This document shows positions 1 to 64,000 of a stretch of 64,000 nt of DNA, piece after piece (the first letter of the stretch is position 1; each line of letters starts with the position of its first letter). The stretch comes from Escherichia phage WPEC5, in the sequence record PV654397.1. One strand, 5' to 3'. The notes under the pieces were generated by a model. It made no database searches. It saw only the letters and a program-made list of their open reading frames with translations, and was not told the DNA's origin. The position numbers and the translations under genes were made by a program.

Positions 1-2
1 AT

Positions 3-647
3 TTGCCTTCTGCTGTAAATGACATGCGATATACGTTTAGTTATGGTTCAGTACTATGTCGATTGGATACGACTTCTATATACGCATGGGGACGAAACAC
101 AAATGGTGAATTAGGTCAGGGTAATGCAACAGCCATTGTTACTCCAAAACTATTGTCTGGTTCTTCTATTGCAATGGGTACTTCGTATAATGCTACTGCA
201 ATTGTTTCTGGTTCTGCATCGTTAGTTACGTGTGGTGGTCAGAATAGTGGTCAGTTGGGTAATGGTATTACTACTGATGGTAATGTATACACCTTTGGTG
301 TCAGGACATACCCAGGCGATCTTAATACAATAAGAAGTCCAGTGGATTGCAGTACAACTTACACCTCTGCATTTATGAGTCCAGATGGTATATATTACAC
401 TGGTGCTAACCGAAGTATGTTTGGTGGTATTAGTGGTGCTTCTACCGTTGCTGTATATACTAAATGTAGTGATTTACCAATAACATATTCTAATATAATT
501 CAGTGGAGTAGTGGTACTATAGGTGGTGCTATATGTAGTAGTACAGAGTTATACCAATGTGGTATAGGTAGATACATTGCTGGTGATGGTGCGAGCACAA
601 CCAGGTATGGATTTAGGAAGACACCATTACCTTGGGATACTTATTGA
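3..647 (+). CDS. RCC1-like beta-propeller repeat protein, array paralog (5' end outside window)
   Basis: ORF open to window edge; GxNxxG(E/Q)LGxGN blades (GRNTNGELGQGN, GGQNSGQLGNG); followed by hairpin terminator. Confidence 0.8.
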   Translation: MPSAVNDMRYTFSYGSVLCRLDTTSIYAWGRNTNGELGQGNATAIVTPKLLSGSSIAMGTSYNATAIVSGSASLVTCGGQNSGQLGNGITTDGNVYTFGVRTYPGDLNTIRSPVDCSTTYTSAFMSPDGIYYTGANRSMFGGISGASTVAVYTKCSDLPITYSNIIQWSSGTIGGAICSSTELYQCGIGRYIAGDGASTTRYGFRKTPLPWDTY

Positions 648-653
648 CATTAC

Positions 654-682
654 GCCAGTACTCTGTACTGGCTTTTCTTTTT
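654..682 (+). terminator. intrinsic terminator hairpin GCCAGTAC-TCT-GTACTGGC + T-run
   Basis: 8-bp perfect stem then TTTTCTTTTT right after stop codon; element recurs along the array. Confidence 0.7.
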
Positions 683-686
683 GTAT

Positions 687-701
687 TAAATATAGTATAA
701 T
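687..701 (+). promoter_or_regulatory. promoter-like motif TAAATA-N3-TATAAT
   Basis: conserved block ATTAAATATAGTATAAT 17 nt upstream of ATG, followed by AAAGGAGGG RBS. Confidence 0.5.
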
Positions 702-718
702 GAATAAAGGAGGGAATT

Positions 719-1909
719 ATGTTACCTTTTGTTAGAATGTTTGATTATGGGAATATCACACCTGAACCTCTTCAAATTAAGAAAATAATACCAACTGATA
801 CTGAGGTTGTTGTACTTTATACCGACGGTCAACTATACGCACGAGGCAGTAATAGTTATGGGAAGTTTGGTAGAGGAAATAATAATGCAGTAAGGTCGTG
901 GACATTAATTAGAGAAAATGTCAAAGATTGCTGGATGACACAAGGAACTTTGTTAGTACAAGATAATGACTTAAATTATTTTTATTGTGGATATGGTAGT
1001 CATATTGGTTTACCAACTAGTACTACTACGTTTTTAAGTTATAACCAATATATTGAAAATTTGTACACACAAAGTTCAAGTACTTCAATTAAACAGATGT
1101 ATGCAGGTACTACGTGGTTTACTTTCTTAATGGATAATAATACAATATGGAGTACAGGGTGGAATAGTGCTAGACAATTCGCAGATGGTACAGGAACTAC
1201 TTATCAAATATCAGATGGTTCATTTGTTAAAGCGGTAACACCAGATGTTGATATTGCACAAATAATGTCAACATATAACTGTGTAATGTTGTTTGATAAA
1301 CAAAATAATTTATATATTGGTGGTAGTACATCTGGCATAAGTACTAGTACCACATGGACACCATTTAATGAATATACTTTATATCAGCCAAGTACCACAT
1401 ATACAAAAACATTACAATATACTGTTTGTTCATTTGGTGCTGTCAGTGCTTTAGTAGAGAATCCAAGTACAGGAGCACGTCAGTTTCTAGTTGGTGGATT
1501 AGCTAATAATGGAGCATGGGGAAATAAAACTACATCTAGCACTGTTAATGGAGTTTTAGGAAATAATAGTGCTACATTACCACCCGGTACTTTGTATTCA
1601 ATTCATACTGGATACCCAGCACAATCTAGTATACTAGTTACGAGTGCAGGTGTATATGCAACTGGTTTAAATGCGAGTAGTTATGCTGGCACATTGGGTG
1701 TTGGTTATGATGCTACCATTGGTAAATTTACTGCATGTCCATTGCCGTCAGAAATAACATATTCTATGTATGATAAAATAAAAATATATCGCGGTTCGTT
1801 GCGTACTTTCCTAACTGCTGATATGAAAAATATATATTCAACCGGAACTTATGATGATGGTGGTCCTAGTACAAATAGATATGTTCTGGATACACCTAGA
1901 CAATTGTAA
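719..1909 (+). CDS. RCC1-like beta-propeller repeat protein, array paralog
   Basis: strong RBS; N-term MLPFVRMFDYGN; blades such as GSNSYGKFGRGNNNA. Confidence 0.9.
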   Translation: MLPFVRMFDYGNITPEPLQIKKIIPTDTEVVVLYTDGQLYARGSNSYGKFGRGNNNAVRSWTLIRENVKDCWMTQGTLLVQDNDLNYFYCGYGSHIGLPTSTTTFLSYNQYIENLYTQSSSTSIKQMYAGTTWFTFLMDNNTIWSTGWNSARQFADGTGTTYQISDGSFVKAVTPDVDIAQIMSTYNCVMLFDKQNNLYIGGSTSGISTSTTWTPFNEYTLYQPSTTYTKTLQYTVCSFGAVSALVENPSTGARQFLVGGLANNGAWGNKTTSSTVNGVLGNNSATLPPGTLYSIHTGYPAQSSILVTSAGVYATGLNASSYAGTLGVGYDATIGKFTACPLPSEITYSMYDKIKIYRGSLRTFLTADMKNIYSTGTYDDGGPSTNRYVLDTPRQL

Positions 1910-1916
1910 TGTAAAA

Positions 1917-1945
1917 GCCAGTACTTGATACTGGCTTTTCTTTTT
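1917..1945 (+). terminator. intrinsic terminator hairpin GCCAGTA-CTTGA-TACTGGC + T-run
   Basis: perfect inverted repeat followed by TTTTCTTTTT. Confidence 0.7.
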
Positions 1946-61946: not shown

Positions 61947-62096
61947 TCAATCAGATTTCTTTTCGTAATCTGCAAAAACAGTCAGGATTGTTGCACACAG
62001 TGAATCAACTGCTGCTGCACGTTTTTCATCAAGGGATTTCGCTAGTTCTTGAATCTCTTGAAGTTTTACTACTAAGTCAATTTTTTGATTACTCAT
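61947..62096 (-). CDS. small hypothetical protein (start trimmed to Met with AGGAGAAG RBS)
   Basis: internal ATG preceded by strong RBS; removes 71-nt overlap. Confidence 0.45.
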   Translation of the reverse strand: MSNQKIDLVVKLQEIQELAKSLDEKRAAAVDSLCATILTVFADYEKKSD

Positions 62097-62118
62097 TACT
62101 TCTCCTATTGAATGTATT

Positions 62119-62424
62119 TTAGATGTTAATTTTGATACCAGATAGATCCAGTACTTTACGTATAGGAGGTTCTGGTTCAGGCTGAACAACCTCTTCAGGC
62201 TCTTGTGCTGGAATCTTTGTGTTAATATTTAGACCATCTTGAAGAATTTCAGGGATAATTCCATGCTGCACATCATTGTACATAGACACAACCGTTTCTG
62301 CACAAGATAACATTTCACGAACTTTAAACTGATATCCTTGTGGTAAATCTTTGATGATTTCCATAACATCTAATAACTTCGTTTGTACATCAATAAGAAT
62401 ACTGTTTGATTTATCTGCGTCCAT
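62119..62424 (-). CDS. hypothetical protein
   Basis: packed minus-strand ORF. Confidence 0.55.
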   Translation of the reverse strand: MDADKSNSILIDVQTKLLDVMEIIKDLPQGYQFKVREMLSCAETVVSMYNDVQHGIIPEILQDGLNINTKIPAQEPEEVVQPEPEPPIRKVLDLSGIKINI

Positions 62425-62996
62425 TAATCCAACTCCACTACGTTATTTTTTTTCTTTGTATTTACTACAGTGGGTGAATCATTTTTTGTCACATCACCTC
62501 GTAGTTTCTTTTCTAGTGCGATGATACGCTTTAATGTCTTAATTGACGGTCGTTTCTTTGTTAGCTCGGCTTTTGCTTCAGTATAATACTTTCGGATATA
62601 TCCATATGCATAATACTTAGAACCAATAAAAATTTCAGCAACGGCTGGCTGGTAACTCATTTCGTACCCATTAATGTCCACGGGTGATGCATAAAATACA
62701 ATATTTGTATTACACGAAGAAATTTTAGCAACCAGTAAGTTAGCTTCAAGTTTATTCAAAATCAATGTAGTGGTTTCTTCTGCCTCGTCACTGTACTGCA
62801 TAGCTGACATTAGAAGTTGAAAGGACTTGAAGTAATTACTACCACTGATTACCGTATTGAAGATTAAGCCCAATGTAATCAGTACTAGTGTACCAAGACA
62901 TATAAACAAAAACCAATATTCAACACTCATTAATATATCCTCAGTTTGTATTTTATTAAAAAAAGCCCCATCAACATTGATGAGGCGGGAAATCAA
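62424..62996 (-). CDS. membrane-anchored hypothetical protein
   Basis: hydrophobic helix near N-terminus. Confidence 0.55.
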   Translation of the reverse strand: MISRLINVDGAFFNKIQTEDILMSVEYWFLFICLGTLVLITLGLIFNTVISGSNYFKSFQLLMSAMQYSDEAEETTTLILNKLEANLLVAKISSCNTNIVFYASPVDINGYEMSYQPAVAEIFIGSKYYAYGYIRKYYTEAKAELTKKRPSIKTLKRIIALEKKLRGDVTKNDSPTVVNTKKKNNVVELD

Positions 62997-63206
62997 TTAC
63001 TTACGGTTTGCTTTACGCAGTTCAGAAAGTTCTTCTTGTAGACTTTTCTTCCATGCAATTAGATGAGCAAAACGGATTGGCCTTGCACCAGTACCGTGGA
63101 ATACTGCGAGAGCTTCTTCAGCTTGATGAATCTGGAACTGAATGTAGTTCACAGTGCGGTCGAAGTCGGTGATATCTAGTACTTGTGCGTTAGTTTCTTT
63201 AGCCAT
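62997..63206 (-). CDS. hypothetical protein
   Basis: packed minus-strand ORF. Confidence 0.5.
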   Translation of the reverse strand: MAKETNAQVLDITDFDRTVNYIQFQIHQAEEALAVFHGTGARPIRFAHLIAWKKSLQEELSELRKANRK

Positions 63207-63323
63207 TTTTAATACCCTTTTATTTCTTTTTTATGAAAAACCCTCATCATTGAGGAATGGTTTGCATTTTTACATCTGCCGATAATATACATTATATCAT
63301 GCTTTTCAGCGTTGTCCCAAAAA

Positions 63324-63620
63324 TTAATTATTTTTTAGAACAAATTTCACGACTGGTAACTCTGTTTCGTTTGATTCGGATTCATTATATCCGTTCTTCG
63401 TGAGAACGTCAATAACTTTTTTAGAATCGATTGTAAATTTATCAAGTTCAGTATAACGATAATAACCAATGGTCTGACTGAACTCATACTCACCTGGACG
63501 CTGACGGCAACATGTTTGTGTTTCTGACATAATTGCATTGATTAGATAATAAGATTCAGTACTATCATTGTTTGGTACATAAATCTTACCATCAAAATGA
63601 ATCACTTCATGTTTATTCAT
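63324..63620 (-). CDS. hypothetical protein (start trimmed)
   Basis: packed minus-strand ORF. Confidence 0.5.
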   Translation of the reverse strand: MNKHEVIHFDGKIYVPNNDSTESYYLINAIMSETQTCCRQRPGEYEFSQTIGYYRYTELDKFTIDSKKVIDVLTKNGYNESESNETELPVVKFVLKNN

Positions 63621-63882
63621 ACAGTGAGTTGATCTCCACTTGAAGAATTGAAATAATTTCCTTTTGAAGACCTGTAATTTCACTATTCAGTGAAGATAAA
63701 CGTTTGGTCAATGCCATAAACTGTTTAGCGTCTTCTTTGGAACGGTCATTGCGAACTTTATCGGAACTCCAGTTAGCATATGATTGCTCATCTTTTTTGT
63801 TAAGAATGTCCCAGTCCAAACGGACTAGTTTTCGTTCTTTCTTAAGTTCGCTTAGGCGAGATTTCATTTCTTCTTTAGTCAT
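63613..63882 (-). CDS. hypothetical coiled-coil protein
   Basis: packed minus-strand ORF. Confidence 0.55.
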   Translation of the reverse strand: MTKEEMKSRLSELKKERKLVRLDWDILNKKDEQSYANWSSDKVRNDRSKEDAKQFMALTKRLSSLNSEITGLQKEIISILQVEINSLYE

Positions 63883-64000
63883 TACAATGTTCCTTTCATA
63901 AAGTCAGGGATAACGATTACGATAGAAGGATTATACTCCACATATCCATTCTTTGTCAATAGACTTTTGATATCAGAAATAACATTATCATGTTGTTCCA
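63882..64000 (-). CDS. hypothetical protein, 3' end only (5' part outside window)
   Basis: hand translation ...IVIVIPDFMKGTL with TAA overlapping the next ATG. Confidence 0.35.
   Translation of the reverse strand, partial: EQHDNVISDIKSLLTKNGYVEYNPSIVIVIPDFMKGTL

Follow-up and report, generated by a model that had tools for sequence, protein, structure and literature searches.

The nearest known phenomenon to the sequence pattern described here is HIP1 (GCGATCGC), the highly iterated palindrome of cyanobacteria. HIP1 is a GC-rich 8-mer found in cellular genomes and in some cyanophages. It is over-represented many-fold, recurs every few hundred to thousand base pairs in coding and non-coding DNA and is shared within clades. 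Its function is unsettled and a link to a methyltransferase is suspected. The present analysis concerns the palindromic hexamer AGTACT in a stretch of 64,000 nucleotides from Escherichia phage WPEC5 (PV654397.1), which is called the window throughout, and in related jumbo phages. Like HIP1, AGTACT is a short perfect palindrome in many-fold excess, lies in coding and non-coding DNA, is common to a clade and has a suspected methyltransferase link. It differs in being a 6-mer of AT-rich virulent jumbo phages that is concentrated in terminal repeats and occupies fixed registers in promoters. The biased repair proposed for HIP1 should deplete one-mismatch variants, an expectation that AGTACT does not bear out.

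Chi, the uptake sequences DUS and USS, and KOPS are comparable in that a protein reader drives a genome-wide excess of a word, with hundreds of copies under weak selection per copy. These words are asymmetric and strand-oriented and are read by RecBCD, the uptake machinery and FtsK, respectively, whereas AGTACT is a palindrome with mirror-image flanks. It shows neither the asymmetry and orientation bias of Chi nor a position at recombination boundaries. The target of ScaI/Eco255I-type enzymes is the identical sequence, and compact palindromes of this sort are characteristic of Type II enzymes. Such sites are usually avoided by phages, but here the site is eight-fold enriched: an observed/expected ratio well below 1 is expected for an avoided restriction site and the ratio found is 8.2.

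SPO1 TF1 and phi29 p6 are similar in proposed action only, i.e. binding all along the phage DNA, most densely near the ends or early promoters, with early shut-off. The feature recognised is hydroxymethyluracil DNA in the case of TF1 and bendability in that of p6, not a defined hexamer. No homologue of either was noted here, and no search aimed at one was made. In phage P1, cleavage at pac is regulated through Dam methylation of hexamer repeats (TGATCA/G). Palindromic hexamers clustered at the packaging end and a phage-encoded adenine methyltransferase are found there as here, but pac has seven copies at one locus and AGTACT about 900 genome-wide. Finally, the SlmA-binding site of Escherichia coli (GTGAGTACTCAC) contains an AGTACT core, and the filamentation of Sharanji-infected cells (PMC11895373) was counted as a further likeness. 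The flanks rule out SlmA sites. G is the rarest base at position -1 (7%), the GTG...CAC flanks are lacking, and 834 of the 909 sites in the related phage TH47 have 4–6 mismatches to the SlmA site across the six flanking positions.

Abundance and conservation of AGTACT

The window has a G+C content of 34.8% and encodes about 130 genes, most of them small; 116 lie on the minus strand. It is 99.1% identical to Escherichia phage Turkey3 and is Asteriusvirus jumbo coliphage DNA; identities to the other Asteriusvirus jumbo coliphages (fEgEco12, TH47, 121Q, PBECO4 and G17) are 87–99%. On the map of fEgEco12, whose genome ends have been verified experimentally (PMC13070987), the window corresponds to about 283.1–347.1 kb in reverse orientation and ends ~6.6 kb short of the right terminal repeat.

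AGTACT occurs 164 times in the window (2.56 per kb). In 100 dinucleotide-preserving shuffles the count is 20.8 ± 4.5, with a maximum of 36. A sequence-only reading of the window had judged the hexamer by eye to be well above expectation, and the exact count reveals an excess larger than it supposed. Observed/expected ratios are 7.5, 8.2, 4.5 and 2.3 under Markov backgrounds of order 0 to 3, and AGTACT ranks first of all 4,096 hexamers under each of these (z = 30.5, 32.2, 21.1 and 11.2). The same reading had proposed to count all palindromic hexamers in this way. AGTACT comes first among them, with ratios that are not near 1, whereas the others reach at most 1.4-fold and 27 of the 64 do not occur. 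The ratio falls to 1.17 under order 4 (rank 58, z = 2.1). There the expectation derives from the counts of AGTAC (260) and GTACT (267), and order 4 is an unfair null because 164 copies of each already sit within AGTACT. The result mainly shows that the excess is a property of the full hexamer.

The copies are not confined to one class of sequence. In the window 138 are wholly coding, 24 are intergenic and two span gene boundaries, which corresponds to 2.48 per kb of coding and 2.89 per kb of intergenic DNA. Shuffling of synonymous codons, with proteins and codon usage held, yields 35 ± 5.7 coding copies instead of 138. All three reading frames are enriched (64, 27 and 47 copies; expected 21.6, 4.4 and 8.9). 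The preferred context is HAGTACTD and its commonest form is CAGTACTG (35 copies in the window). The commonest 12-mer context is found just four times. Hence the sites are independent, and an origin as copies of a single repeat is rejected. A perfect palindrome in many-fold excess over Markov backgrounds, in all frames and in non-coding DNA and mostly in unique contexts, conforms to the pattern of HIP1.

AGTACT bends the proteome. In TH47, of which 350 kb were sampled, there are 639 Ser-Thr dipeptides where 428 are expected; the reverse dipeptide Thr-Ser occurs 417 times. Ser-Thr is spelled AGT-ACT in 331 cases against 99 expected (52% vs 15.5%). Tyrosine in the context nAG-Tyr-Tnn is in 3.3-fold excess, with TAC as its codon in 78% of cases compared with 34% overall.

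AGTACT behaves as a double-stranded DNA signal. It reads the same on both strands, and over the 909 sites of TH47 the flank preferences are mirror images (position -1: C 0.47, T 0.24, A 0.22, G 0.07; position +1: G 0.44, T 0.26, A 0.21, C 0.10), despite strongly one-sided transcription. Orienting the flanks in the window by coding strand makes little difference (hand-computed chi-square about 5.9, 3 degrees of freedom). G at -1 is excluded in all genera sampled; the favoured base is C in Asteriusvirus and RaK2-like phages and A in CBB. Beyond -1 and +1 there is little information. The boxes in promoters are located upstream of the transcription start.

The sites are kept by selection genome-wide, in all reading frames and between genes. 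In an alignment with a 121Q-type relative, which covers 37 kb at 84% identity, 80 of 107 sites survive unchanged, against 45.2% of hexamers overall (p = 6e-10). Against TH47 (96% identity), 92.9% of the sites and 83.0% of all hexamers are intact. Identity per position is 92.4% within the sites and 85.9% in the 11 bases on either side (p = 5e-7), and positions -1 and +1 are unprotected. Sites have been gained (21) about as often as lost (27). Where the window aligns to TH47 the density is 3.0 sites per kb, and it is 1.4 per kb in the unaligned segments (p = 9e-4).

The excess is common to a whole clade and absent from the sampled relatives, as in HIP1. TH47 contains 909 copies (103 expected) at a mean spacing of 384 bp, or about one per 390 bp. 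AGTACT is the top hexamer there and also in a 121Q-type phage (ratio 9.5), a RaK2-like Klebsiella phage (11.6), GAP32 (10.5), Erwinia phage pEa_SNUABM_47 (12.2), XbC2 (11.1) and Salmonella phage 7t3 (10.9). Seven lineages of the RaK2-like clade are thus enriched 8–12-fold. The first 50 kb of CBB, the portion sampled, contain 266 copies (4.5–6.4 per kb). The AGTACT-rich clade comprises Asteriusvirus, Alcyoneusvirus, Mimasvirus, Eneladusvirus and the 7t3 group. No enrichment is present in PA5oct, the nearest outgroup sampled (0.13), Vibrio phage 2.275.O (0.41), Lak-B5 (0.49) or Staphylococcus phage 92 (0.83). A 50-kb sample of E. coli K-12 has three copies where 4.8 are expected, and the phage exceeds this sampled host DNA about 40-fold in density. 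The sigma factors of the AGTACT-rich lineages are just 34–42% identical to that of the window, and the enrichment is therefore an old feature. No report of it was found in the literature searched, which included papers on the RaK2, CBB, fEgEco12 and Sharanji genomes and reviews of jumbo phages.

Promoters, terminators and the terminal repeat

The sequence-only reading had placed the hexamer in stems of terminators, in a strand-switch terminator, in promoter spacers and inside coding regions, and every one of these contexts is present. Five sigma-70-like promoters of the window form a class TTGAC(A/T)-N9-AGTACT-G(A)-TATAAT, all on the minus strand. In the promoter at 22474–22501 (TTGACA-N9-AGTACT-G-TATAAT) the spacer box lies at about -19 to -14. 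The others are located at 33340–33367 (TTGACAAACGTTTGTAGTACTGTATAAT), 37650–37677 (TTGACATAAGATATCAGTACTGTATAAT), 56316–56344 (TTGACTAAATAGTTCAGTACTGATATAAT) and 56738–56765 (TTGACTAAATAGTTCAGTACTGTATAAT). Directly downstream of an AGTACT-box promoter are three successive open reading frames (ORFs) of 54 amino acids each at 56776–57262 (minus strand), which are equal in length and have overlapping stop and start codons.

Promoters of the terminal repeat have the form AGTAC-TTGCAA/TTGACA-N-TATAAT; in many of them another AGTACT directly precedes the -10 element. There are 18 upstream-box promoters in the repeat of fEgEco12, several of which also have a spacer box; a dual-box example is located at 4414–4446. 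CBB has at least 14 promoters with both boxes, TH47 several and the RaK2-like sample one. The register relative to -35 and -10 is fixed and kept between genera, with boxes at about -41 to -36 and -19 to -14. The two boxes bracket the -35 element and the spacer, and the upstream box abuts the -35 hexamer. They are 20–22 bp apart, and over all sampled genomes the spacing of site pairs peaks at 21 bp (18 pairs vs 4.8 expected). Since 21 bp are two helical turns, the dual boxes lie on one face of the helix. Some pairs with this spacing are intragenic. A cluster of five sites at 35832–36052 includes two that are 21 bp apart (35832 and 35853), and a tight cluster of three sites, AGTACT-N10-AGTACTAGTACT, is situated within a coding region at 30077–30104.

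A sigma factor gene is encoded at 40077–40862 (minus strand). Its product matches only sigma-70 regions 2 and 3 in Pfam, and no region 4 is detected at E ≤ 0.001. A sigma factor that lacks region 4 would fit a promoter reading without a canonical -35 element.

Terminators with AGTACT in the stem follow genes of an array of about 11 RCC1-repeat paralogues at 24–12893 (plus strand; HERC1/NS1A-binding-like in the annotation of Turkey3). Near-identical hairpins and an AT-rich, promoter-like cassette are found after most of these genes. The hairpins have the form GCCAGTACT..GTACTGGC. The first, GCCAGTACTCTGTACTGGC followed by a T-run, is an intrinsic terminator after an RCC1-like gene (654–672); the others are located at 1913–1939, 2725–2747, 3936–3954, 8647–8665 and 11015–11033, all on the plus strand. 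At 12898–12924 a bidirectional terminator (AATCCAGTACTATTATAGTACTGGATT) with AGTACT in both arms marks the strand switch. Such regulatory copies are a small minority, with five promoters and seven terminators among the 164 sites. A promoter element should have most of its copies in promoters; here 138 of 164 are intragenic and only five are in recognisable promoters.

Density is highest in the terminal repeat. The direct terminal repeat of fEgEco12 (20,993 bp) contains 138 sites, or 6.6 per kb (10.9 in non-coding and 4.5 in coding DNA), about three times the level of the genome. In CBB the annotated repeat (22,456 bp) has 6.4 per kb and the following 27.5 kb have 4.5 per kb. By analogy with phage T5, the 21-kb repeat may hold pre-early genes. 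The left-terminal 1.7 kb of fEgEco12 are non-coding and contain 15 sites, mostly TCAGTACTGA(A). A distinct repeat block of the type GGATGGCT/GACGGCTA is situated at about 780–900 of this terminus. TH47 has a tandem array of four copies of TTCAGTACTATCA.

AGTACT is missing from the 5.3 kb past the repeat boundary of fEgEco12 (21000–26300), a segment made up of an array of about 24 overlapping ORFs, each of about 70 amino acids (g057–g080). A second block without AGTACT, 8.4 kb in length, is found near the left terminal repeat of TH47 (71773–80216). Both blocks are still free of GCGC (see below). A terminase cut site is rejected, with AGTACT absent at the terminal-repeat boundary and at the left terminus of fEgEco12.

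Candidate readers of the hexamer

AGTACT is a positively selected, dyad-symmetric word specific to the RaK2-like jumbo-phage clade. As a tentative explanation, HAGTACTD with CAGTACTG as its optimum may be the recognition site of a clade-specific, phage-encoded, dimeric protein that binds or modifies DNA. A predicted homodimer that reads double-stranded DNA explains the data best, because the palindrome is conserved as a unit and selected in every sequence class, and because of the two-turn phasing and the placement over the -35 element and spacer of early promoters. The geometry of the promoter boxes suggests repression of pre-early and early transcription that depends on the host RNA polymerase: bound to the boxes, the candidate protein would occlude this polymerase and shut off the promoters. 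The dispersal of the copies suggests a second role across the genome, in which the same protein, through the intragenic sites, would selectively coat, organise or mark the phage DNA. N6-adenine methylation by a Dam-family methyltransferase of the clade may be an additional or alternative mark at AGTACT. It would also shield about 900 ScaI/Eco255I-type sites from restriction.

Four causes of the excess had been offered from the sequence alone. Among them a regulator or DNA-binding site is best supported, by dyad symmetry, promoter registers, 21-bp phasing and conservation of the hexamer. A pure mutational signature is disfavoured by undepleted neighbours, sharp changes in density and fixed promoter positions. 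Packaging is hinted at only by the three-fold density of the terminal repeat and the cluster of sites at the non-coding left end, and a packaging role is insufficient because about 900 sites are scattered across the genome. The fourth cause, a modification target, is possible: one Dam-family adenine methyltransferase, a candidate enzyme for AGTACT, is conserved in exactly this clade.

Several observations weigh against a dimeric reader. The binding protein is a candidate proposed from sequence patterns, and a bare palindrome of 6 bp looks more like a site of the restriction-modification type than like an operator of 12–20 bp. Spacer-box promoters (TTGACA-N-AGTACT-N-TATAAT) are found in none of the sampled regions of GAP32, Erwinia phage and 7t3, where only 3–5 copies each abut a -35-like word. 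Since these samples are nevertheless enriched, promoter use is not the main cause. Promoter and terminator cassettes have in part been copied from each other, and their fixed registers could partly stem from common descent. Because site-free blocks of 5 and 8 kb adjoin the terminal repeat, AGTACT is not needed everywhere. A connection with the methyltransferase is no strong argument either. Co-occurrence is weak evidence because any core gene of the clade is distributed likewise, and Staphylococcus phage 92, the nearest outgroup that bears the enzyme, has an AGTACT ratio of 0.83.

The search for a phage-encoded methyltransferase, also proposed earlier, led to one enzyme in TH47 that is conserved in the clade. 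A six-frame motif screen of TH47 detects a single amino-methyltransferase signature, (D/N/S)PP(Y/F/W), in a protein of 174 amino acids that belongs to the phage N6-adenine methyltransferases (PF05869/TIGR01712, Dam family) and is encoded at 48196–48720 of TH47 on the minus strand. Its stop codon overlaps the start of a nucleotidyltransferase-like gene. By eye and by the annotation of relatives, the neighbours are this gene and one for a repeat protein, and no nuclease gene is evident in the immediate neighbourhood, the region inspected. Orthologues with E ≤ 1e-32 are present in 68 jumbo-phage records and otherwise only in 16 Staphylococcus siphophages. Hosts of these jumbo phages are Escherichia, Klebsiella, Erwinia, Salmonella, Yersinia, Xanthomonas, Serratia, Pectobacterium and Cronobacter. 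No solved structure or named specificity was found for the enzyme.

Methylation alone, without a binding protein, is an unlikely explanation but deserves consideration. AGTACT would be the target of the Dam-family enzyme, and methylated sites would be useful as methylation-sensitive early promoters, packaging signals or self-labels. Targets of Type II methyltransferases are typically compact palindromes of 6 bp. All AGTACT-rich genera have the methyltransferase, in kept synteny with the nucleotidyltransferase gene, whereas a search at E ≤ 1e-32 does not find the enzyme in PA5oct-type relatives. The AGTACT ratio is 0.13–0.8 in genomes without this feature, related or not. Because of this under-representation in non-carriers the hexamer looks like a normally avoided restriction site, of which 900 unprotected copies would be a liability. 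On the other hand, characterised members of this enzyme family mostly methylate GATC, an eight-fold intragenic enrichment is not accounted for, and the closest outgroup with the enzyme is unenriched. As this outgroup, Staphylococcus phage 92, holds the closest non-jumbo homologue, a link between enzyme and enrichment was sought there and rejected as uninformative. Digests of fEgEco12 DNA with ten restriction enzymes match prediction (PMC13070987), which makes global hypermodification of bases unlikely. EcoRI, HindIII, ClaI and others cut it normally, so that broad adenine methylation is absent (PMC13070987). For RaK2, CpG methylation and two methyltransferases have been reported in the literature.

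It is improbable that AGTACT serves a chromosome-wide DNA enzyme, i.e. a nicking or cleaving endonuclease for recombination-dependent replication or clamp loading, the start of a primase, or a type II topoisomerase (A^GTAC^T, with a 4-base stagger). Such an enzyme needs sites on both strands every few hundred base pairs, and a palindrome with the spacing seen in TH47 provides them. Density peaks in the terminal repeats, where the genome ends recombine, and the T4-like replisome and topoisomerase of the clade (PMC5259590) were counted in favour. No gene for a restriction-like enzyme is evident next to the methyltransferase, and neither the promoter registers nor the 21-bp phasing are accounted for. 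Known primases read trinucleotides, which argues against the primase variant. Ends of homology blocks between relatives are no closer to AGTACT (median 138–465 bp) than are random positions (132 bp); a recombination hotspot is rejected on this ground, by a weak test with 25–29 ends per comparison.

A neutral drive, in which biased mutation or mismatch repair similar to very-short-patch repair turns near-cognates into functionless AGTACT, is very improbable. The enrichment of every sequence class and the near balance of gains and losses would agree with it, as would the segments not shared with close relatives, which have half the density, as would follow if sites accumulated with residence time. 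However, the one-mismatch neighbours occur at 1.1–2.3 times expectation, with the exception of AGGACT/AGTCCT (0.45), and very-short-patch-type repair is rejected on account of these undepleted neighbours. Density falls from 6.6 per kb to zero across the boundary of the terminal repeat, promoter positions are fixed in three genera, pairs are phased at 21 bp, and protein sequence is altered to suit the hexamer.

A by-product of codon, dipeptide and repeat content (Ser-Thr, Val-Leu and Tyr codon pairs, paralogue arrays, copied regulatory cassettes) can be dismissed: AGT and ACT are indeed common codons (34% of Ser and 46% of Thr) and an array of 11 paralogous genes in the window has near-identical terminators, but the synonymous-codon shuffles, the 3–6-fold excess in each frame, an intergenic density that matches the coding one, the rarity of any shared 12-mer context and the unenriched reverse dipeptide Thr-Ser reject this artefact.

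Other features, absent palindromes and significance

The window also encodes endonuclease V. Four transfer RNA (tRNA) genes (Thr, Asn, Met and Ser) are located at 52786–55549 on the minus strand. The cluster varies among near-identical phages, with seven tRNA genes annotated in the homologous region of Turkey3. A DUF4379 zinc-ribbon locus at 16500–19900 is fragmented and internally repetitive, with pieces on both strands. Its coding density is low, AGTACT is sparse there, and two genes of the same position in Turkey3 (XMR01475 and XMR01476) are missing. The Chi octamer of E. coli occurs nine times in the window, at 2141, 2396, 2654, 6929 and 7067 on the plus strand and at 11561, 22974, 33506 and 39826 on the minus strand; about 0.4 copies are expected by a hand estimate. 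All eight copies within called genes lie on the coding strand and read GCT-GGT-GG (Ala-Gly-Gly). The enrichment of Chi is probably a by-product of codon usage and is rejected as a signal.

The abundance of AGTACT is accompanied by the absence of other palindromes. GCGC does not occur in the window, in the 350 kb of TH47, where 170–200 copies are expected, or in any sampled AGTACT-rich member of the clade. CGCG is present (127 copies in TH47), and GCGC is found in PA5oct, Vibrio phage 2.275.O and Staphylococcus phage 92. The absence of GCGC could reflect extreme restriction avoidance or self-avoidance of a putative phage-encoded, GCGC-specific nuclease. Nearly all of the 27 palindromic hexamers that are missing from the window have at least four G/C, and their summed expectation is roughly 110. 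This avoidance extends over the clade, with 23 palindromes absent from TH47. GATC is present at about half of its expected count.

A two-part sequence code by which RaK2-like jumbo phages tell their own DNA from that of the host is conceivable, though doubtful. The premise is that these phages have ordinary, unmodified bases and do not build a phage nucleus. AGTACT, at about 900 copies per genome, would be the positive mark, read or methylated by a clade-specific protein that would control the pre-early promoters and organise or protect the chromosome. The lack of GCGC and of about 23 GC-rich palindromes would be the negative mark, which would let phage nucleases destroy host DNA safely. The absence of GCGC alongside AGTACT suggests how the phages may spare their own DNA during degradation of the host DNA. 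If true, such a code would be a new type of viral self/non-self system.

Phages are known for purging short palindromes. Here a hexamer of the restriction type is held at about 900 copies per genome, under selection strong enough to alter proteins, and is kept across at least five genera. The sequence, the occurrence in virulent phages, the concentration in terminal repeats and the promoter registers set it apart from HIP1. RaK2-like phages feature in therapy studies; they form no phage nucleus and their bases are not hypermodified. AGTACT offers a direct handle, as an oligonucleotide bait such as TTCAGTACTGAA could help to tell apart a global repressor or organiser, an epigenetic mark and an enzyme site. 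The dual-box form also provides a working criterion for recognising pre-early promoters in the clade. The retention of AGTACT implies an unrecognised interaction between DNA and protein that is central to a large group of jumbo phages.

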